Below are positions 1,373 to 43,294 of a stretch of 64,000 nt of DNA, in pieces. The stretch is from an uncultured Gammaproteobacteria bacterium (lineage in GTDB: Bacteria; Patescibacteriota; Patescibacteriia; UBA1558; GWA2-36-10), in the NCBI GenBank assembly GCA_964424615.1, contig CAYRIU010000033.1, positions 247 through 64,246 of the forward strand, given 5' to 3'. A program made the translations under genes and the position numbers. Positions within the stretch are counted from its first letter, which is position 1. The number at the start of each line of letters is the position of its first letter. Under the pieces are notes generated by a model. It was not told where the DNA came from and made no database searches. It saw only the letters and a program-made list of their open reading frames with translations.

Positions 1373-4321
1373 TAAGGTATCAATGACTGATTCCAAGTTT
1401 GTGAGTAAATTTTTAGTCAAATAATCAAATTCAATTTTTATTTGTAGATTTTGGTATAGCCAATGGGGATTTTTTTCTTGGAGTAAAGAAATATTTTTGA
1501 GATTTGGTTGTTTGATAAAATTGATTGTCAGCCAATGTTTTGTCTGACTTTTTTGATTGCTGATATTGATAATATCTTTGTTTTGGCAAAGTATTTTTAT
1601 TTTTTGTAAATGCCAGAGATTAGCAATATTTTTTTCAGCTGCTTGATGTATGTTGTTTTCAATTTTTTCTAAGCTCCGTTCTTGGCTAATTTTTTGGTAA
1701 AAAATTATTTTTTCAGCAATACTTTTTTTGAAGTCAGTTGGCAGACTAGTATCAATCGGTAATTTTATCTCTACATCGCGCCAGTATTTGACTGGCTGAC
1801 CTTTGATTTCGCGGATAGTTTCAGAGATGAGCTGTTGGTAGAGTCCGAGGCCTATGGTTTTTACTTTGCCAGATTGGGCTTGGCCCAAGATTTGTCCGAC
1901 GCCACGCAGCTCTAGATCTTTGTTGGCTACTTTGAAGCCTTCGCCCAAGTTACTAGCTTGCTTCAAGAAACCTAGTCTTTGGCTAGCTAGTTTTGGTAGT
2001 TTTTCTGAGCTATGCATGAAATAGGCGTAGGCTTGGCGGTCAGAGCGACCGATGCGTCCGCGTAGCTGATGTAGCTGTGATAGACCAAAGCGATTAGCTT
2101 TGTGGACTAGTAGGGTGTTGGCGCGTGGTATGTCTAGGCCATTGGCAATGATGGTCGAACACAATAAGACATCAATCTGTCCAGTATCAAAATCATGCAT
2201 GACTTGGGCTAATTTTTCGTCTTCCATTTGGCCATGAGCAATAGCTACTTTTATTTTTGGTAAGAGTTTGGTTAATTTTTTGTAAGCTAAATCAATAGTC
2301 TCTACTTGATTGTATAGGTAGTATACTTGACCTTGGCGAGCTAATTCTTGCTGTATAGCCTCCACTACAATTTGGTCATTTTCTTCGACTACTTTGGTGA
2401 TGATATTTTTGCGATCTTTGATTGGGTCATTGATCAGACTGATATCTTTGATCATAGATAGAGCCATGTTGAGAGTGCGGGGGATTGGTGTGGCAGTCAG
2501 TGTCAATAAATGTATATTAGCGCGATGTTTTTTGAGCTTTTCTTTGTCTTTGACACCAAAATTTTGCTCTTCGTCAATGATTAGTAGCTGTAATTTTGGA
2601 AAATTGATATCCCGTGATAGTAAGCGATGAGTGCCAATGATAATATCAGCTGTACCATCGCTGATGGCTGATAAATTTTTTTTTATTTCTTTTTCTTTTT
2701 GCCAACGAGTCATCAGCACTACTTTGACACCAGATTTTTCAAAACGACTGATAAAATTATCATAGTGTTGTTGAGCTAGAAGCGTAGTCGGACAGAGTAG
2801 GGCGACTTGGAAGCCATTGGCGACTACTCTGGCTGCTGCTCTCATTGCTACTTCAGTTTTGCCAAAGCCCACATCACCACAGACTAGGCGATCCGATGGA
2901 TATGGTCGACTGAGATCGTCCAAAGTTTCTGTGATAGCCTGGGCCTGAGAAGGAGTGAGAGTATAGGGAAAACTTTTAGCTATTTCTTCTTCTATTTTTT
3001 GTATTTTCAAAGCCGGACTTTTTTGTAATTTGCGGGTAGCCTCAACCAATAATAGCTGATTAGCTAGTTCCCAGGTTTGGTCTTTTATTTTTTTGAGGGT
3101 TTGGGGCCAGGTATTACCGACGGATAGCCTATGTATTTTTGGGTTAGCAGGACCTATGTATTTTTCTAGTTTGTCAGCTAGGTCCACTGGTACAAAGAGC
3201 GTGTCATTTTCAGCATAGGACAAGACAAAGTATTCGCGAGTCAGGCCGTCGACAGGCATCGTGGTCATTTCTTTGAGTAGAGCAATACCATGATCACGAT
3301 GGACTACCAAGTCACCGATAGTAAAGTCCGAACGAAATTCTTGGGCTACATAGTCAGTATTTTTGTCCTCAGCAAAAAACAAAGAATCATTGACTAGGAT
3401 TATTTGTTGTTTTTCAGCATAGATAGCTTGTGGCCAGCTCAAAGCTTGCTGCCAATCATAGAGCGAACACTGAATATTATTTTCTTTGATCAATTTTTGG
3501 GCTAGTGTTTTATTTTTAGTGAGCCAGATTATTTTTTCTCCTTTTTTCTGCTCTAAGAAGTAATAATAATTTTTTTGTTGACCTAATATATTATCAATTG
3601 ACTCAGTTTTGAAGTAATCTTTGCCCAAGGGGTCAAAAATAATTTGGTGGTTATTAATATTATTGTCTAGGGCAATATCTGTATCAGCTATCAGTAAAAC
3701 TTGCTCTGGCAAAGAAGTGATAAATTTTTCTTTGTGAAAGCTAGACTTTGGCCAAATATCCAGCTCATTTATTGGGTGTTCGGCATAGATTTGGTTGCTA
3801 GCAAAATAAACTATTTTTTCTATTTTATTTTCATCATAATTGAGACGAAATATTTTGTTGTCTTGGAAAATATCAACAATAGAGCCACGGATACTAAAAG
3901 TAAATTCTGTAAAAGCTTGGGAGTGTCGCTCAAAACCAATTTTTATCAAATCTTCAGTCAAAGTATGGAGATGATAGTATTCGTTGGTATGCAGAGTGAT
4001 TTTATTTTCATTGAGATCTGACCACTGTGGCGTCAGGCTATCGAGGTTGTTTTTGGTGGTCAAAACAATACTATCCTGAAGGCGATGGAGGGCGATGAGT
4101 GTTTCTAGGCTAGCATCGTCTGTATCTGGCCAAGCAATCACTTTTTTTTGATCAATATTTAATTCTTGAGACCAGAGTTTGAGTAAATCCAACCAAGTTT
4201 TTATTTCTTTATTATTTTCCAAAATACACAAAACCGCCCTATTTTCCTGAAAGAGGGGGGTGTGAAATAGAGCTAGACTAAGACTTGCACTATCTGCTGC
4301 TGTAGCAATGCGGACTTTCAC
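1370..4321 (-). CDS. mfd: transcription-repair coupling factor Mfd
   Basis: 983 aa. Superfamily-2 helicase motifs (GDVGFGKTEVAMRAA, DEEQNFGV, HGQM...) and TRCF-like C-terminus. About 150 aa shorter at the N-terminus than E. coli Mfd. Confidence 0.9.
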   Translation of the reverse strand: MKVRIATAADSASLSLALFHTPLFQENRAVLCILENNKEIKTWLDLLKLWSQELNIDQKKVIAWPDTDDASLETLIALHRLQDSIVLTTKNNLDSLTPQWSDLNENKITLHTNEYYHLHTLTEDLIKIGFERHSQAFTEFTFSIRGSIVDIFQDNKIFRLNYDENKIEKIVYFASNQIYAEHPINELDIWPKSSFHKEKFITSLPEQVLLIADTDIALDNNINNHQIIFDPLGKDYFKTESIDNILGQQKNYYYFLEQKKGEKIIWLTKNKTLAQKLIKENNIQCSLYDWQQALSWPQAIYAEKQQIILVNDSLFFAEDKNTDYVAQEFRSDFTIGDLVVHRDHGIALLKEMTTMPVDGLTREYFVLSYAENDTLFVPVDLADKLEKYIGPANPKIHRLSVGNTWPQTLKKIKDQTWELANQLLLVEATRKLQKSPALKIQKIEEEIAKSFPYTLTPSQAQAITETLDDLSRPYPSDRLVCGDVGFGKTEVAMRAAARVVANGFQVALLCPTTLLAQQHYDNFISRFEKSGVKVVLMTRWQKEKEIKKNLSAISDGTADIIIGTHRLLSRDINFPKLQLLIIDEEQNFGVKDKEKLKKHRANIHLLTLTATPIPRTLNMALSMIKDISLINDPIKDRKNIITKVVEENDQIVVEAIQQELARQGQVYYLYNQVETIDLAYKKLTKLLPKIKVAIAHGQMEDEKLAQVMHDFDTGQIDVLLCSTIIANGLDIPRANTLLVHKANRFGLSQLHQLRGRIGRSDRQAYAYFMHSSEKLPKLASQRLGFLKQASNLGEGFKVANKDLELRGVGQILGQAQSGKVKTIGLGLYQQLISETIREIKGQPVKYWRDVEIKLPIDTSLPTDFKKSIAEKIIFYQKISQERSLEKIENNIHQAAEKNIANLWHLQKIKILCQNKDIINISNQKSQTKHWLTINFIKQPNLKNISLLQEKNPHWLYQNLQIKIEFDYLTKNLLTNLESVIDTL

Positions 4322-12644: not shown

Positions 12645-12929
12645 ATGAAACAATATTTTGTTTATATTTTAGCCAGTAAGAATAATAAAGTTATCTATAT
12701 TGGTATTACTGATGATCTAGTGGGAAGAGTTTGGCAACATAAAAATGATGTAGTTGAAGGCTTTACCAAAAGATATCAAGTGCACAAGTTGGTATATTAT
12801 GAAATTATAGAAGATGTGACGGAGGCAATTTTAAGAGAAAAAAGAATGAAGAAATGGAAGCGTCAATGGAAAAATAATGTGATAAATGGATTTAATCCTA
12901 ATTGGGATGATTTGTATGATCAATTATAA
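12645..12929 (+). CDS. small GIY-YIG nuclease family protein (UPF0213-like), copy 1
   Basis: N-terminal YFVYILASKNNKVIYIGITDDLVGRVWQHKN GIY-YIG motif, 94 aa; followed directly by a palindromic repeat element. Confidence 0.7.
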   Translation: MKQYFVYILASKNNKVIYIGITDDLVGRVWQHKNDVVEGFTKRYQVHKLVYYEIIEDVTEAILREKRMKKWKRQWKNNVINGFNPNWDDLYDQL

Positions 12930-12962: not shown

Positions 12963-13063
12963 GTCATTCCTGCGAAGGCAGGAATCTAGCTTGAGTAATG
13001 TTTAAGCGAGATCCCGCAACAAGTGCGGGATGACAGGTATAAAGCTGCGGATTCCAGAATGAC
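12963..13063. repeat. palindromic multi-hairpin repeat element, family A, copy 1
   Basis: GTCATTCCTGCGAAGGCAGGAATC (8-bp stem, GAAG loop), spacer, GATCCCGCAACAAGTGCGGGATGAC (8-bp stem), then a degenerate third module; terminal GTCAT...ATGAC. Confidence 0.75.
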
Positions 13064-15222: not shown

Positions 15223-15305
15223 GTCATTCCCGCGAAGGCGGGAATCTACCATTATTTTGCCGATTGGCCAATCAGTGGTAGATCCCGCATCAAGTGCGGG
15301 ATGAC
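15223..15305. repeat. palindromic multi-hairpin repeat element, family A, copy 2
   Basis: GTCATTCCCGCGAAGGCGGGAATC, central hairpin containing the perfect palindrome GATTGGCCAATC, then GATCCCGCATCAAGTGCGGGATGAC; same architecture as the copy at 12963. Confidence 0.8.
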
Positions 15306-18313: not shown

Positions 18314-19642
18314 TTAATGGGATTCCCGCCTGCGCGGGAATGACGTGGAGATCTCTGCTTCCACACCCCAATTCAAAGCTTTGGTAATTTTTATTTTGAC
18401 AAATCCACCAATAGCTAGTGGTTTTTTGCTGGATATTTTGACAGTAGTGTAGTTAGCCAGTTTTCCCATATTGAGGTAATTTTGGCCTATTTTTTTATTT
18501 TGGTCAATCAAAACCAATGCTGTTTGATCAACTAATCTTCTATTAAAAGCCAAAGATTGTTGCCCAATGAGTTTATTGAGTTCTTGCCAACGTTTTTTCT
18601 TTTCTAGCTTCGGCACATCATCTTTGAACATTTTGGCAGCAGCTGTGCCTGCTCTACTAGAGTATTGAGCGAAGTAGGCGGTGTTGTAGTTTACTTCTTT
18701 TACTAAGTCCAAAGTTTCTTGGAATTGCTTGGCTGTCTCAGTTGGGAAGCCGACAATGATATCAGTGGAGATAGCTATATCAGGAATACTGGTGCGTATT
18801 TTTTTTATTAATTTTTTGTAATGAGTGATAGTGTAGTGACGATTCATTTTTTTGAGGATGACATCAGAGCCAGATTGTACTGGTAGATGTAGATAGTGCG
18901 TCAGATTTTTGGCTTTGGCCATCACAGCGATCAGATCATCTGACATGTCATAGGGGTGGGAGGTCAAAAATTTTAGCCAAAAATTATCACCCAATTTATC
19001 AATTTTTTTTAGGAGCTCGGGAAATTTGATTTCAACTTTGATATCTAGTCCGTAGCTATTTACATTTTGACCCAACAAAATTATTTCTTTGTAATTGGCT
19101 TGCAATAATTTTTTGACCTCAGCAATTATATCTTTACTTGGGCGAGAGGTTTCACGGCCACGAGTATGGGGCACAGCGCAGTAGGTACAAAATTTATTAC
19201 AGCCAGTCATGATTGGCACATAGGCACGATAGCTAGAGTAGTAGCTAGGGTCAATACTAAAAAAGCTAGGCAAGGATAATTTTTCTTCTGGTTGGATGTT
19301 TTGTAAATCTGAGGTTAGATTTTCTAGGTGATTGATATCAATAAACAAATCAAACTTGCCAGCTAATTTTTTGCGGTCAGCCGGTAAGACACAGCCAGAG
19401 AGTAAGGTGACTAGTGGTCTTTTTTCTTTGACTAGTTGCCATTCGCGCAGTTTGCCGTAGATGCGATCAACGGCTGCTTGGCGAACTGAGCAGGCGATAA
19501 TGCCAATCAAATCAGCTTCGTTTTCATTTTTAGTTTCTTTGTAACCCAAACTAGTCAAAACTGTGGCTAGTCTTTCAGCATCAGACATGTTCATCTGACA
19601 GCCAAAGATTATTAAATGAAATTTCTTCGTATTTTTTTTCAT
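18314..19642 (-). CDS. miaB: MiaB-family radical-SAM tRNA methylthiotransferase
   Basis: N-terminal MTTase domain (FHLIIFGCQMNMSDAERL), radical SAM CxxxCxxC (CNKFCTYCAVP), C-terminal TRAM. Last 9 codons derive from repeat copy 3. Confidence 0.85.
   Translation of the reverse strand: MKKNTKKFHLIIFGCQMNMSDAERLATVLTSLGYKETKNENEADLIGIIACSVRQAAVDRIYGKLREWQLVKEKRPLVTLLSGCVLPADRKKLAGKFDLFIDINHLENLTSDLQNIQPEEKLSLPSFFSIDPSYYSSYRAYVPIMTGCNKFCTYCAVPHTRGRETSRPSKDIIAEVKKLLQANYKEIILLGQNVNSYGLDIKVEIKFPELLKKIDKLGDNFWLKFLTSHPYDMSDDLIAVMAKAKNLTHYLHLPVQSGSDVILKKMNRHYTITHYKKLIKKIRTSIPDIAISTDIIVGFPTETAKQFQETLDLVKEVNYNTAYFAQYSSRAGTAAAKMFKDDVPKLEKKKRWQELNKLIGQQSLAFNRRLVDQTALVLIDQNKKIGQNYLNMGKLANYTTVKISSKKPLAIGGFVKIKITKALNWGVEAEISTSFPRRRESH
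18320..18343. repeat. palindromic repeat module, family A, copy 3 (single module) embedded in the miaB 3' end
   Basis: GATTCCCGCCTGCGCGGGAATGAC; same 8-bp stem as the copies at 12963 and 15223. Its reverse complement encodes the last residues SFPRRRESH of the miaB ORF. Confidence 0.7.
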
Positions 19643-35197: not shown

Positions 35198-35253
35198 TTC
35201 ACCCTGTTAAATGCCCGCTATGCGGGCAACCCGAAGGGTTATTTAACAGGGAC
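35198..35253. mobile_element. 56-bp MITE-like solo element: the same 15-bp terminal inverted repeats as the GIY-YIG element at 39213, enclosing only a 28-nt GC hairpin
   Basis: TTCACCCTGTTAAAT (35198-35212) ... GCCCGCTATGCGGGCAACCCGAAGGGTT ... ATTTAACAGGGAC (35241-35253). The 17-nt AATTCACCCTGTTAAAT is identical to the left end at 39211. Sits in the rpsB 5' leader. Confidence 0.65.
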
Positions 35254-35377
35254 ATCAAGTATTTTGTCTTTTAGTCCAAGATCCTTCTCTCATAAAAGAG
35301 AGCGCTTGGGCCACAAAATACGGGTTTATATCCACCAATGTTCAATGCTTGGCGGATTAAAGAAAGGAAAGAATAAT

Positions 35378-38268: not shown

Positions 38269-39177
38269 TTGCCATACTATGAGCATATTATTATATATAT
38301 GCGTCTTGCTAAGATAAAATTTCATAAATTAGATAAAGAGTTTTTTTTCTTACCCGAGTTTACTAATGACCATCGCTCGGAGATCAAGATCGGTGAACAG
38401 GTGATTGTAGATACGGCCATGGGTCGTGATTTGGGTGAGTTGCTAGATATTGCTGAATATACTGATAGTGAAGTAGAAAAAATCCAAGCTAATCAGATAA
38501 AAAGCCTAGGTGAATTGAAAGGTTTGAGTTGTCTGGCTAGCGACAGTGATATAGCCAAAGCTCAGTCTTATCAATCTAGCTATGAGCGATATCTCAAAGA
38601 AGCTAGAGAGATGTGTCAAAAACACAAGCTCAAAGAAATGAAGCTAGTGGATGTTTCGCTGTCTTTGGATGGCACCAGATTGACCATTTACTTTATCTCC
38701 AATACTAGAGTCGATTTTCGTGAGCTAGTCAAAGACATGGCTGCTATTTTTCACAAAAAGATTCGCTTACAACAGATCGGTGTCAGGGATGCCGCCAAGA
38801 TCGGCGGTGACTGGGGGCCTTGTGGCTTACCGCTTTGTTGCAAGGCGTGGCTATCAGAGATTGGCAAAGTCAGTCCTGATACTATAAAAAAACAAGAGTT
38901 AATGCATCGAGGAGTTGACCGTCTGACTGGTGTCTGTGGTCGTTTGAAGTGCTGTCTACGCTTTGAAGAAGATCAACAACGTTGGGTAGAGGGCAAAGCT
39001 CCAAAAATAGGTGATATTATCCAAATAAAAACTGGGCAAGCAAAGGTAATAGCTGTATATCCAGACAAAAAAACAGTTGATCTAGAAGTTGATGGTGCAG
39101 TGGTAGAATATCCATATACTGAGGGTAATAAGTGTAAAGCAGATTGTCAGTCTGGCTGTCCGTCAAACTGTCAATAA
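38269..39177 (+). CDS. PSP1 C-terminal domain protein (YaaT/RicT-like)
   Basis: RVDFRELVKDMAAIFHKKIRLQQIGVRD...GPCGLPLCC...GVCGRLKCCLRFE matches the PSP1/RicT signature. True start may be the Met at 38299. Confidence 0.7.
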   Translation: MPYYEHIIIYMRLAKIKFHKLDKEFFFLPEFTNDHRSEIKIGEQVIVDTAMGRDLGELLDIAEYTDSEVEKIQANQIKSLGELKGLSCLASDSDIAKAQSYQSSYERYLKEAREMCQKHKLKEMKLVDVSLSLDGTRLTIYFISNTRVDFRELVKDMAAIFHKKIRLQQIGVRDAAKIGGDWGPCGLPLCCKAWLSEIGKVSPDTIKKQELMHRGVDRLTGVCGRLKCCLRFEEDQQRWVEGKAPKIGDIIQIKTGQAKVIAVYPDKKTVDLEVDGAVVEYPYTEGNKCKADCQSGCPSNCQ

Positions 39178-39212
39178 TTGTATAATGACCTTTTAGGAAT
39201 AATTTGCTATAA

Positions 39213-39507
39213 TTCACCCTGTTAAATAAATTTAAATTTTCTTTAGTTATGCTATACTATACTTATGTATTACTAAGTAAAAAAGTTAATAAATTTTATA
39301 CTGGCTATACAAAAAATTTAAATTTAAGATTTAAGCAACACAATAAAGGTAAGGTAGAGTCTACTAAAGATAGAAGGCCCTTAAAGTTAATTTATTATGA
39401 AGCTTGCTTAAATCAACAGGATGCAACTAAAAGAGAAAAATATTTAAAAACGTATTTAGGCAAATTATTTATACATAATAGGCTTAAATCTTATTTAACA
39501 GGGTAAA
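39213..39507 (+). mobile_element. candidate GIY-YIG-encoding mobile element bounded by 15-bp terminal inverted repeats
   Basis: Left end TTCACCCTGTTAAAT (39213-39227). Right end ATTTAACAGGGTAAA (39493-39507) is its reverse complement, 13/15 match. A related solo copy exists at 35198-35253. The ends occupy the whole ricT-gap intergenic space. Confidence 0.6.
39249..39506 (+). CDS. small GIY-YIG nuclease family protein, copy 2 (element cargo)
   Basis: YYTYVLLSKKVNKFYTGYTKNLNLRFKQHN GIY-YIG motif, 85 aa. The last codons (LTG-stop) lie inside the right inverted repeat. Confidence 0.7.
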   Translation: MLYYTYVLLSKKVNKFYTGYTKNLNLRFKQHNKGKVESTKDRRPLKLIYYEACLNQQDATKREKYLKTYLGKLFIHNRLKSYLTG

Positions 39508-39513
39508 AAAAAT

Positions 39514-40518
39514 ATGGCAAAAAAAATTAAAGTAGCAATCAATGGTTTTGGTCGTATCGGTCGAGCTTCGTTTAAAATAATGCTCGATAGTTCAAAATAT
39601 AAAGTAGTGGCTATCAATGATTTAGCACCGGCAGAGAGTTTGGCTTATTTATTGAAATACGACACTATGTATGGTCGCTACAACAAAAAAATAGATGCCA
39701 AAGATAACTATATTATCGTCAATGGTAAAAAATATTTAGTCACAGCTGTGCCAGAGCCAGAGAAACTGCCTTGGAAAAAATTAGGAGTTGATGTGGTACT
39801 GGAGTGCACTGGTCGCTTTGTTAAAGGTGAACAAGCAGCTTTGCACATCAAAGCCGGAGCCAAAAAAGTGATTATTTCTGCTCCAGCCAAGGGCGGCGAT
39901 GTCATGACCTATCTACTGGGTGTCAATGAAGATAAATATAAACAAGATAAAGTAATTTCCAATGCCTCTTGCACTACCAATTGTATTGCGCCGGTAGCTC
40001 AAGTGATGGTCACAAATTTTGGGGTGGAAAAAGCCATGATGACTACTATCCACTCCTACACCGCTGATCAGCATCTAGTTGATAGTCCACACAAAGATCC
40101 ACGACGTGGTAGAACTGCAGCTCAAAATATCGTGCCAACTACTACTGGCGCTGCTATTGCTACTGGCCAAGTGATTCCTGAAATGGAGGGTTTGTTTGAT
40201 GGTTTGTCTATCCGTGTCCCAACCGCTGTGGTCTCTTTGGCAGACTTTACATTTGTGTTGAAAAAAAATGTGACTGTCGAGCAGGTCAACAAAGCTTTGA
40301 CTAAGGCCAGCATATCACCCAGAATGAAAAATATTTTAGGCGTCACTAGTGATCCGGTGGTTTCATCAGATTTCATCAAAGATCCTCGTAGCTCTATAGT
40401 GGATTTATCCTTGACCAAGGTAGTAGGTGGCAATATGGTTAAGATCATTGCCTGGTATGACAATGAGTGGGGATATTCATGCCGTTTGGTCGACATGATT
40501 GGGCAAATTAGTAAATAA
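39514..40518 (+). CDS. gap: glyceraldehyde-3-phosphate dehydrogenase
   Basis: INGFGRIGR NAD-binding motif, active site SNASCTTNCIAP. Confidence 0.95.
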   Translation: MAKKIKVAINGFGRIGRASFKIMLDSSKYKVVAINDLAPAESLAYLLKYDTMYGRYNKKIDAKDNYIIVNGKKYLVTAVPEPEKLPWKKLGVDVVLECTGRFVKGEQAALHIKAGAKKVIISAPAKGGDVMTYLLGVNEDKYKQDKVISNASCTTNCIAPVAQVMVTNFGVEKAMMTTIHSYTADQHLVDSPHKDPRRGRTAAQNIVPTTTGAAIATGQVIPEMEGLFDGLSIRVPTAVVSLADFTFVLKKNVTVEQVNKALTKASISPRMKNILGVTSDPVVSSDFIKDPRSSIVDLSLTKVVGGNMVKIIAWYDNEWGYSCRLVDMIGQISK

Positions 40519-42972: not shown

Positions 42973-43052
42973 CCCACTGTAGCTTAGCCGATGAAAGCAC
43001 CCAGGTAATAAGAGCTGGGAGATCGTAGGTTCAAATCCTACCAGTGGGACCA
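42973..43052 (+). tRNA. tRNA-like gene with encoded CCA and a non-canonical 10-nt anticodon loop (identity undetermined; could be an unusual tRNA or a pseudogene)
   Basis: Acceptor CCCACUG/CAGUGGG. D-arm GCUU-AGCCGAUGA-AAGC. Anticodon stem CCCAG/CUGGG enclosing GUAAUAAGAG. Variable AGAUC. T-arm GUAGG-UUCAAAU-CCUAC, discriminator A, CCA. Own promoter TTGACA (42931)-16-TAACAT and terminator at 43086. Confidence 0.55.
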
Positions 43053-43187: not shown

Positions 43188-43294
43188 AACCCCGTAGCTC
43201 AACTCGATAGAGCAGTAGGTCATCCACGAGTGCCTACTACGGGCGCTGATAAAAAAGTGCCCGTGTGGTGGTTCGAATCCACCCGGGGTTCCCA
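43188..43294 (+). tRNA. tRNA-like gene (104 nt plus CCA) with 13-nt anticodon loop and about 29-nt variable region (identity undetermined)
   Basis: Acceptor AACCCCG/CGGGGUU. D-arm GCUC-AACUCGAUA-GAGC. Anticodon-position hairpin GUAGG-UCAUCCACGAGUG-CCUAC. Long variable arm ACGGGC-N14-GCCCGU. T-arm GGUGG-UUCGAAU-CCACC, discriminator C, CCA. Own promoter TTGACA (43145)-16-TATTAT and terminators at 43305-43359. Confidence 0.5.

Follow-up and report, generated by a model that had tools for sequence, protein, structure and literature searches.

What is a small GIY-YIG nuclease gene doing exactly between two inverted repeats, and does the pair move as a unit? The question is raised by a 295-bp unit at positions 39213-39507 of the window, which here means the whole 64,000-nt stretch of contig CAYRIU010000033.1 (assembly GCA_964424615.1, placed by GTDB in the Patescibacteriota). 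A preliminary description of this DNA presented the unit as a candidate transposable element with a short gene-less relative nearby. Comparative sequence evidence indicates that it is a real, conserved module that has moved, and that modules of this kind have already been defined for the Ssn family of nucleases (PMC11893778). Several of its features are undescribed, namely a different repeat, an arm inside the open reading frame (ORF), pairing of the two arms across the gene, gene-less (solo) copies with three-way junctions, and heterotypic ends.

Structure of the unit

The left arm (39213-39229, plus strand) is the 17-nt sequence TTCACCCTGTTAAATAA, with the family consensus TTyACCCnGTnAAATAA. 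The right arm (39491-39507, plus strand) is the 17-nt sequence TTATTTAACAGGGTAAA and comprises codons 81-85 (S Y L T G), the stop codon TAA, and one more base. Between the arms, and running into the right one, lies a single-domain GIY-YIG nuclease gene of 85 amino acids on the plus strand (39249-39506; Pfam PF01541, E=4.7e-16), whose final five codons and stop codon belong to the right arm. The 15-nt cores of the arms, TTCACCCTGTTAAAT (39213-39227) and ATTTAACAGGGTAAA (39493-39507), are complementary at 14 of 15 positions, the exception being a C opposite an A. A repeat finder stretches the arms to 24 nt at 83%, but the comparative data set the conserved repeat at 17 nt per arm. The preliminary description is thus borne out on an ORF bounded by inverted repeats and on the position of its last codons and stop, and the arm-to-arm ends that are conserved in the family coincide exactly with the boundaries that it gave. 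It also placed the unit correctly between a PSP1/RicT-domain gene (38269-39177) and gap (39514-40518).

When the sequence from 39205 to 39515 is folded as single-stranded DNA (ssDNA), the terminal stem is predicted in both the minimum free energy and the centroid structures (z -4.2). In the window, a 13-mer of the arm has five matches with up to two mismatches against 2.2 expected, an approximately 2-fold excess that is unimpressive alone. What makes the repeat significant is that homologous genes elsewhere are nearly all flanked by the same arms.

A promoter-like site, ATGACC-17 nt-TGcTATAAT, abuts the left arm (39185-39213, plus strand; 10/12 match with a TG extension). Its extended -10 box, TGcTATAAT (39206-39213), overlaps the left arm by one base, the final T of the box being the first of the arm. 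The same box, TTTGyTATAAT, occurs upstream of gap in three related loci that lack the element (L086, L088, and L089). The site is probably the host promoter of gap and would drive the nuclease gene and then gap. Transcripts from it would be predicted to start inside the left arm, giving a messenger RNA without the outer part of that arm, which makes an RNA function of the full stem less likely in the window. Three independent sites, namely the window, L081/L083, and L051, have this arrangement, in which the final T of an extended -10 box (TGyTATAAT) opens the element. This abutment could reflect a target preference for melted promoter DNA, or selection for expression.

Distribution of the family

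More than 4995 relatives of the 85-aa protein are present in the protein collection, and the best 120 of them have 62-100% identity, nearly all at least 76%. In genome contigs, with one genome per species, at least 527 loci encode a relative, in many phyla, and the 80 loci retained have 73-84% amino-acid identity. The arms were analysed in 72 non-redundant full copies, and codon and substitution statistics were calculated over 74 ORFs. The hosts include Patescibacteria, Desulfobacterales and Desulfatiglandales (Desulfobacterota), Bacteroidales and Flavobacteriia (Bacteroidota), Cloacimonadota, Ignavibacteriae, Scalindua (Planctomycetota), and Izemoplasmatales, and comprise at least seven phyla in all.

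A search of 2.9 million viral contigs gave no homologue, and a phage vector is therefore unsupported. A tblastn search of plasmids gave weak UPF0213 matches in Bacillota only. In the literature, the repeat sequence matched primers only, and no relevant work was found on a GIY-YIG gene combined with miniature inverted-repeat transposable elements (MITEs) or an RNA motif.

Conservation and pairing of the arms

The same arms surround almost all of the 72 full copies. This goes against the possibility that orthologous genes lack the flanking repeats, which the preliminary description named as a reason to regard the arrangement as incidental. The conserved unit can be written as TTyACCCnGTnAAATAA ... 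TTATTTnACnGGGTrAA. Its 14-bp stem consists, in order, of A-T, CCC/GGG, one loosely paired position, G-C, T-A, one covarying position, AAAT/ATTT, and AA/TT, and outside this stem are two outer T-A pairs on either side of a conserved mismatch. The covarying stem position (13-27) is T-A in 59 copies, C-G in 7, G-C in 5, and T.G in 1, and none of 100000 shuffles pairs as well. The G-C variant at this position turns Leu83 into Phe, so here the protein yields to a constraint on the nucleic acid.

The conserved mismatch is found at the third position from each end, which is C or T in the left arm and A or G in the right arm (39215 and 39505 in the window). The combinations in full copies are C.A in 34, T.G in 21, T-A in 8, and C-G in 1 (Fisher p=2e-9). 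In other words, TTCA faces TAAA with a C.A mismatch, or TTTA faces TGAA with a T.G mismatch. Read as ends, one is TTCA and the other TTTA. Solo copies share this heterotypic preference (17+10 heterotypic against 5+2), and reverse-complementing a solo of one type gives the other type. The ORF of full copies may have either orientation relative to the asymmetry of the ends. The outcome of heterotypic ends is a pyrimidine-purine wobble-type mismatch in the stem, whichever strand is considered. In hairpin-using systems elsewhere, stem irregularities mark the strand or the cleavage site.

The nuclease and its constraint

PF01541 is the sole domain above the cutoff in the 85-aa protein and spans residues 3-69. 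The catalytic-type residues Y6, Y17, R27, H31, and E63 are invariant in the family alignment, and the window protein and 25 of the best 120 relatives aligned with it all share the C-terminus RLKSYLTG. An AlphaFold2 model (predicted local distance difference test score 90.6) has a compact GIY-YIG fold with a long C-terminal helix. Among solved structures, it is closest to UPF0213 BH0048, the structure-selective nuclease Slx1, and At-HIGLE, while I-TevI is distant. No Ssn structure was found in the PDB, where UPF0213 and Slx1 are nearest.

Over the 74 ORFs, the median proportion of synonymous differences (pS) is 0.73 and thus saturated, the median proportion of nonsynonymous differences (pN) is 0.15, and dN/dS is about 0.10. 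Codons 79-85 are almost frozen even at synonymous sites: K80 is AAA, Y82 is TAT, and G85 is GGG in 74/74, and S81 is TCT in 67/74. Elsewhere in the ORF, GGG is used at other glycine columns in merely 7-19 of the 74 sequences, and other lysine and tyrosine columns use both codons. The right arm is constrained as a nucleic acid and the gene as a protein.

Codons 27-28 (39327-39332) present a similar picture. R27 is AGA in 68/74 and F28 is TTT in 73/73, and other arginine and phenylalanine columns are variable. The codon usage here suggests a second nucleotide-level constraint inside the ORF, in the stretch AATTTAAATTTAAGATTTAAG with TTAAAT/ATTTAA-like motifs.

Solo copies

The window contains a 56-nt copy without an ORF at 35198-35253, in the 5′ leader of rpsB. 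As the preliminary description noted, it has the same ends, its outer stem CCCTGTTAAAT/ATTTAACAGGG being that of the full unit. Its interior consists of two adjacent GC hairpins, GCCCGC-TAT-GCGGGC and AACCC-GAA-GGGTT. The predicted fold is a perfect three-way junction with no unpaired junction bases (-29.4 kcal/mol, z -4.9, 0/200 shuffles). A hammerhead-like ribozyme was considered for this junction and rejected, since the junction is without unpaired core nucleotides. Compared with the orthologous rpmE-rpsB spacer of the relative L087 (TTTTAATTAAT|CACAAATATTTG), the window solo is an exact insertion bounded by the arms.

Among the 80 gene-bearing loci, about 15 contain ORF-less units with the consensus CCCnGTTAAAT ... 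ATTTAACnGGG. Metagenome contigs searched for exact arms gave at least 120 solo stretches. Most of the 81 that were read are 48-60 nt long and contain two directly abutting perfect hairpins within the outer stem, forming three-way junctions. The overall size of gene-less copies ranges from 42 to 66 nt, and the interior usually consists of two small hairpins. Recurrent interior modules are (C)CCGC-loop-GCGG(G) and AATTTCGCC-loop-GGCGAAATT, and two solos (L111 and L132) have identical interiors with different flanks. Solos retain TTyA before CCCTG and TrAA after CAGGG, although no stop codon is required there. Their ends are palindromic, and they are found in both orientations. The order of the two hairpins has no consistent relation to the asymmetry of the ends among the metagenomic solos read. 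No T-runs follow the solos of this set, and no terminator-like site was found in the window. Neither the full nor the solo element gave an Rfam match, whether the whole window was scanned at the gathering threshold or 35.1-39.6 kb permissively. Full copies carry no remnant of the internal hairpins of the solos, and the earlier suggestion of a MITE that captured a homing gene is for this reason not favoured.

The rpsB leader 3′ of the solo (35254-35377) has a structure of its own, with a long-range stem, GTATTTTGTC ... ACAAAATAC, and an inner hairpin. Comparable sequences, ..AAATATTTGCC...GGCAAATATGGG, are present in L087, and no Rfam family matched the window leader. This structure may be an S2 autoregulatory leader.

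Relocation and insertion sites

Syntenic relatives of the window were compared across rpsB-tsf-[pyrH]-PSP1-gap. Both the window and L082, which has a nuclease 93% identical to that of the window, carry the element at the PSP1-gap site. Empty sites are found in L087, with a spacer of 33 nt, in L088, with 48 nt, and in L089/L090, with 191 nt that do not include the element. In the genome of L087, a copy is present on the same contig at a distance of about 16 kb (L001). Copies 91% identical to that of the window are located between dnaE and a gene of 376 amino acids, and overall the unit occurs in different genomic contexts at 91-100% identity. The metagenome-assembled genome CAYRYH01 contains two copies on different contigs that are about 99% identical from GTTnACCCTG to CAGGGTGAA, and both of their flanks are unrelated. 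A repeat unique to the two loci of the window, with no polymorphism among relatives, was an outcome that the preliminary description would have taken as evidence for coincidence. The empty sites and the metagenomic solos clearly exclude it.

The start codon of the next co-oriented ORF follows full copies within 15 nt in 27/68, often as GGGTAAATG, and the upstream gene is co-oriented in 57/73. With a promoter or preceding gene on the 5′ side and a start codon on the 3′ side, the module occupies the narrow zone between them. It is presumably co-transcribed with host genes.

The PSP1-gap spacer of L086, whose Gap protein is 89% identical, contains an unrelated hydrophobic ORF of 96 amino acids (3196-3486) without a Pfam match and with the same TTTGCTATAAT box before it. 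The spacer appears to be a hotspot for small insertions.

Relation to the Ssn/NTS system

The premise that such proteins are orphan nucleases, and that modules of this kind are unknown, is outdated by the description of the Ssn family. Chenal et al. (2025, Nat Commun, PMC11893778) define Ssn proteins as single-domain GIY-YIG nucleases of about 94 amino acids (CDD cd10448; filter of at most 150 amino acids) that are site-specific for ssDNA. In vitro, they bind a hairpin repeat (NTS/SRM, CGTCATTCCCGCGMAVGCGGGAATCYRG) solely as ssDNA and cut a few nucleotides upstream, and those characterised do not bind RNA (PMC11893778). At least one SRM is found near 71% of ssn genes and SRMs on both sides in 42%, the repeats reach up to hundreds of copies per genome, and the Neisseria system restricts transformation (PMC11893778). 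The IS-like layout NTS-ssnA-NTS, where IS stands for insertion sequence, and a parallel with REP/RAYT, the repetitive extragenic palindromes and their associated tyrosine transposases, were remarked upon by the same authors (PMC11893778). The main text of that paper does not mention Patescibacteria or the repeat of the 85-aa family, and the 85-aa protein may already be present, unremarked, in its list of 22,845 sequences (PMC11893778).

The 85-aa module and Ssn/NTS have in common a single-domain GIY-YIG protein of about 85-95 amino acids, shared catalytic columns, and a wide spread over phyla. Inverted repeats able to form hairpins lie on both sides of the gene in each system, and many further copies without a gene are found in intergenic DNA. 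In contrast, the repeat of the 85-aa module is TTyACCCnGTnAAATAA, whereas that of Ssn is of the CGTCA-hairpin-TCYRG type. The flanks of the 85-aa module are half-sites that pair across the ORF, whereas Ssn flanks are complete local hairpins. The right arm inside the coding sequence and the three-way junctions of the solos likewise separate the 85-aa module from Ssn/NTS.

The window also contains a canonical Ssn-like GIY-YIG gene of 94 amino acids (12645-12929), whose protein has homologues with 60-66% identity in Vibrio, Methylotenera, Micavibrio, and Planctomycetes. Downstream of the gene is an NTS-like inverted pair (12963-12986 on the plus strand, 13010-13034 on the minus strand) near the Neisseria NTS consensus, e.g. 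TGTCATTCCCGCGAAGGCGGGAATCTAC. The genes gatB and miaA enclose a further NTS-like pair (15223-15246 / 15281-15305), and a single NTS-like copy is found at 18321-18344. The SRM pattern HGTCWYN(0-2)YYVSBRHN(0-5)WNVSBRGN(0-2)RNCYNB is absent from 39213-39507 and its flanks, and is matched three times elsewhere in the window, at about 13.0 and 15.2-15.3 kb, beside the 94-aa gene or 2.3 kb 3′ of it.

In L082, an inverted NTS-like pair (GTCATTCCTGCGTAGGCAGGAATCTAG ... CTAGATCCCGC...GCGGGATGAC; 3850-3935) is located just 5′ of the element, and it is absent from the corresponding window sequence (39178-39205). Canonical repeats are thus insertion-polymorphic between close relatives too.

The 85-aa and 94-aa proteins of the window can be aligned over the catalytic core only, with 38% identity over 68 amino acids (pairwise E 8e-11, hhalign probability 98%). 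Residues Y6, Y17, R27, H31, and E63 align with Y7, Y18, R28, H32, and E65 of the Ssn-like alignment, and the equivalents in Nm SsnA are Y6, Y17, and E64. The C-terminal 15-25 residues of the 85-aa and 94-aa proteins are unrelated. In phmmer, the 85-aa protein scores 29.7 bits against the Ssn-like 94-aa protein and 28.3 against UPF0213 BH0048. With the profile of the 85-aa family, the median is 41 bits for Ssn-like proteins and 43 for UPF0213, and the scores between Ssn-like and UPF0213 proteins are lower, at 10-24 bits. On these scores, the 85-aa protein is treated as a distinct subfamily that is equidistant from Ssn-like and UPF0213 proteins and has an analogous architecture.

Comparison with other systems

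UPF0213: Proteins of the B. subtilis YazA and E. coli YhbQ type (PDB 1zg2, 1ywl) share size and fold with the 85-aa protein and are its best PDB matches in sequence and structure. They lack the RLKSYLTG C-terminus, and in the three records examined their genes have a fixed operon context in contrast to the variable intergenic sites of the 85-aa subfamily. In all three records of Bacillota megaplasmids or chromids (L211, L212, and L213), the UPF0213 gene yazA lies directly 3′ of trmNF, and in two of them it is upstream of rsmI, completing the housekeeping arrangement trmNF-yazA-rsmI. We know of no flanking repeat of UPF0213 genes.

REP/BIME and RAYT: The dispersed palindromic repeats known as REP, with their mosaic arrangements (bacterial interspersed mosaic elements, BIME), and the IS200/IS605-like Y1 transposases RAYT resemble the 85-aa module in having one gene between inverted copies of a dispersed short palindromic repeat. 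ssDNA hairpins as presumed substrate, the absence of a target-site duplication, and an ambiguity between domesticated and selfish are also common to both. RAYTs are HUH tyrosine transposases with covalent intermediates, whereas the GIY-YIG nuclease is hydrolytic, and the sequences are unrelated.

MITEs and insertion sequences: Bacterial MITEs and their cognate IS elements likewise have terminal inverted repeats common to coding and short non-coding copies, and they are insertion-polymorphic. As in an IS element, the arms bound the mobile unit, which is seen in the CAYRYH01 copies and the solo insertion, and presence/absence and multiple contexts are found as well. Unlike MITE/IS pairs, the module has no target-site duplication, the interiors of the solos are not deletion remnants, and the protein belongs to no known transposase family. 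To our knowledge, GIY-YIG is not a known class of bacterial transposase.

Integron attC sites: The core and inverse-core consensus of attC is GTTRRRY/RYYYAAC. The arm core GTTAAAT/ATTTAAC fits it, and both are imperfect hairpins in which one conserved position is unpaired. The 5′ arm is GTTAAAT in the module and RYYYAAC in attC, and the module has neither an integrase nor a cassette array. Identity with attC was rejected on the inverted polarity of the arms, the likeness being a coincidence of AT-rich sequence.

Function and mobility

By analogy with Ssn/NTS, the unit is probably, if not by any wide measure, a nuclease-repeat module that works in the same way, with the arm-bounded unit and its solos having spread by a process that recognises the arms. 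The two arms can form the 14-bp stem in ssDNA, and the gene-less copies are closed by it too. In this model, the protein would recognise the arm sequence and the stem in ssDNA and nick beside them, as Ssn does. Suitable ssDNA could be provided by the replication fork, the open promoter complex, or incoming DNA. The nuclease and its repeat would then spread together, and the gene-less copies would be their non-autonomous relatives. The analogy thus points to a nuclease that binds or cuts the arms, and ssDNA rather than RNA would be its substrate. The nuclease would also be the agent of movement.

A bolder form of this proposal is possible but on the unlikely side. Here the unit would be an autonomous ssDNA transposon of a new class, in which the 85-aa GIY-YIG nuclease recognises and cuts the hairpin of its own ends, with the C.A/T.G mismatch marking the strand. 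Together with host replication and repair, it would move itself and the three-way-junction mini-elements into melted AT-rich DNA just 3′ of -10 boxes and 5′ of start codons, in at least seven phyla. The earlier claim of a transposable element stands insofar as the unit is a discrete module with syntenic presence/absence, varied contexts, and abundant ORF-less derivatives. It is weaker insofar as target-site duplications are lacking and transposition catalysed by the nuclease is conjectural.

Several observations weigh against an Ssn-like module spread by recognition of its arms. GIY-YIG nucleases hydrolyse DNA without a covalent intermediate, and such a nuclease alone therefore cannot complete strand transfer. 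The 85-aa subfamily is known here from sequence and predicted structure, and its equal distance to Ssn-like and UPF0213 proteins makes a function predicted from homology less secure. In the core stem, G.T mismatches on the sense strand predominate (39 against 5 A.C), an excess that could hint at an RNA stem, though the signal is confounded by the coding constraint on the right arm. The gene lies within the fetched DNA in merely 4 of 80 solo loci, and the apparent copy number is low, with one full copy and one solo in 64 kb. The CAYRYH01 copies could derive from two co-binned organisms, although the shared unit would still end at the arms. No consistent target-site duplication or defined target was seen at full-copy junctions, the CAYRYH01 copies, or the window solo compared with L087, and isolated flanking repeats at some metagenomic solos resemble parts of larger repeats. 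Finally, the gene behaves like a resident of its site. Between the window and L082, pS and pN are 0.37 and 0.034 for the nuclease, 0.51 and 0.020 for gap, 0.56 and 0.061 for cysS, and 0.54 and 0.069 for tsf. The nuclease gene has co-diverged with its housekeeping neighbours and is as constrained as they are, which fits a host-useful function. Strong purifying selection and vertical inheritance at the site are no harder to reconcile with a function that is useful or domesticated than with an element that is purely selfish.

These last points lead to the rival explanation of a domesticated nuclease-repeat system that serves the host in the manner of Neisseria SsnA/NTS. It would cut ssDNA at a dispersed repeat to control recombination or incoming DNA, the repeats beside the gene would be two more targets, and relocation would occur by ordinary recombination or horizontal transfer, without self-mobilisation. 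We regard this as unlikely, while granting it real weight. The long-term purifying selection with saturated synonymous sites, the inheritance with flanking genes in the window and L082, and the usual one or two gene copies per assembly are all in line with it. So are the operon integration of co-oriented copies with closely following start codons and the Ssn precedent with its host-level phenotype (PMC11893778). It accounts poorly for the CAYRYH01 identity that stops exactly at the arms and for the exact insertion of the rpsB-leader solo. Such precision is unexpected from generic recombination and points to a site-specific process that recognises the arms. Moreover, a spread over at least seven phyla at 73-84% amino-acid identity would need repeated horizontal transfer.

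The remaining alternatives are less probable by far. That the arms act in RNA, with the 5′ untranslated region pairing with the 3′ end of the coding sequence and controlling translation, stability, or RNase III processing of the nuclease messenger RNA within host operons, and with solos as small structured RNAs or processing sites, is improbable. The covariation is equally compatible with RNA pairing, the sense-strand excess is of the G.U type, and copies of the Desulfobacterota type have a Shine-Dalgarno-like TTGAGGG in the 5′ untranslated region that is complementary to CTCAA of the right arm. Nevertheless, solos have palindromic ends and occur in both orientations without T-runs or a terminator-like site, neither element matches Rfam, and the window promoter would start transcripts inside the left arm. 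None of the characterised Ssn proteins binds RNA (PMC11893778), and an RNA function leaves the arm-bounded insertion polymorphism unexplained. A free-standing homing endonuclease gene, copying itself by repair into cleaved empty sites with the solo hairpin or an intergenic site as target, is very improbable. GIY-YIG is a classical homing-endonuclease fold, the gene is intergenic, co-oriented, and variably present, and there is a weak match to the group I intron endonuclease family TIGR01453 (E 5e-4, 20 bits against a cutoff of 56). The protein, however, has no DNA-binding domain, its 85 amino acids being the catalytic domain only, and it is close to Slx1 and UPF0213 rather than to I-TevI. The insertion sites at unrelated genes share no single conserved target, and the full copies without solo interior hairpins and the lack of homologues in viral contigs also speak against homing. 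An incidental coincidence in local AT-rich DNA, for which the 2-fold excess of the 13-mer in the window could be cited, has a negligible chance of being correct and is already refuted by the arms at nearly all of the 72 homologues, the covariation, and the frozen codons.

The module bears on the mobility and diversity of nuclease-repeat pairs, which the Ssn paper left open (PMC11893778). It represents a second such pair, very widespread and sharply defined, with its own repeat sequence. It also adds comparative evidence of mobility, in the form of empty and filled sites and arm-bounded identical copies, which is lacking for the published Ssn system. The arms may provide a new specificity for the ssDNA-nuclease toolbox. 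Whether Ssn-like modules are transposons, and what they cut, can be approached with a 295-bp construct and a 56-nt oligonucleotide. With regard to genome dynamics, the genomes of Patescibacteria are reduced yet keep two such systems within 64 kb.

Other features of the region

Beyond gap, ARAGORN predicts two tRNA genes. One, at 42973-43052, is of undetermined identity with a 4-base anticodon (ataa), and the other, at 43201-43292, is a tRNA-Ser with the unusual anticodon ACT. Rfam backs only the gene at 42973-43052 as a tRNA.

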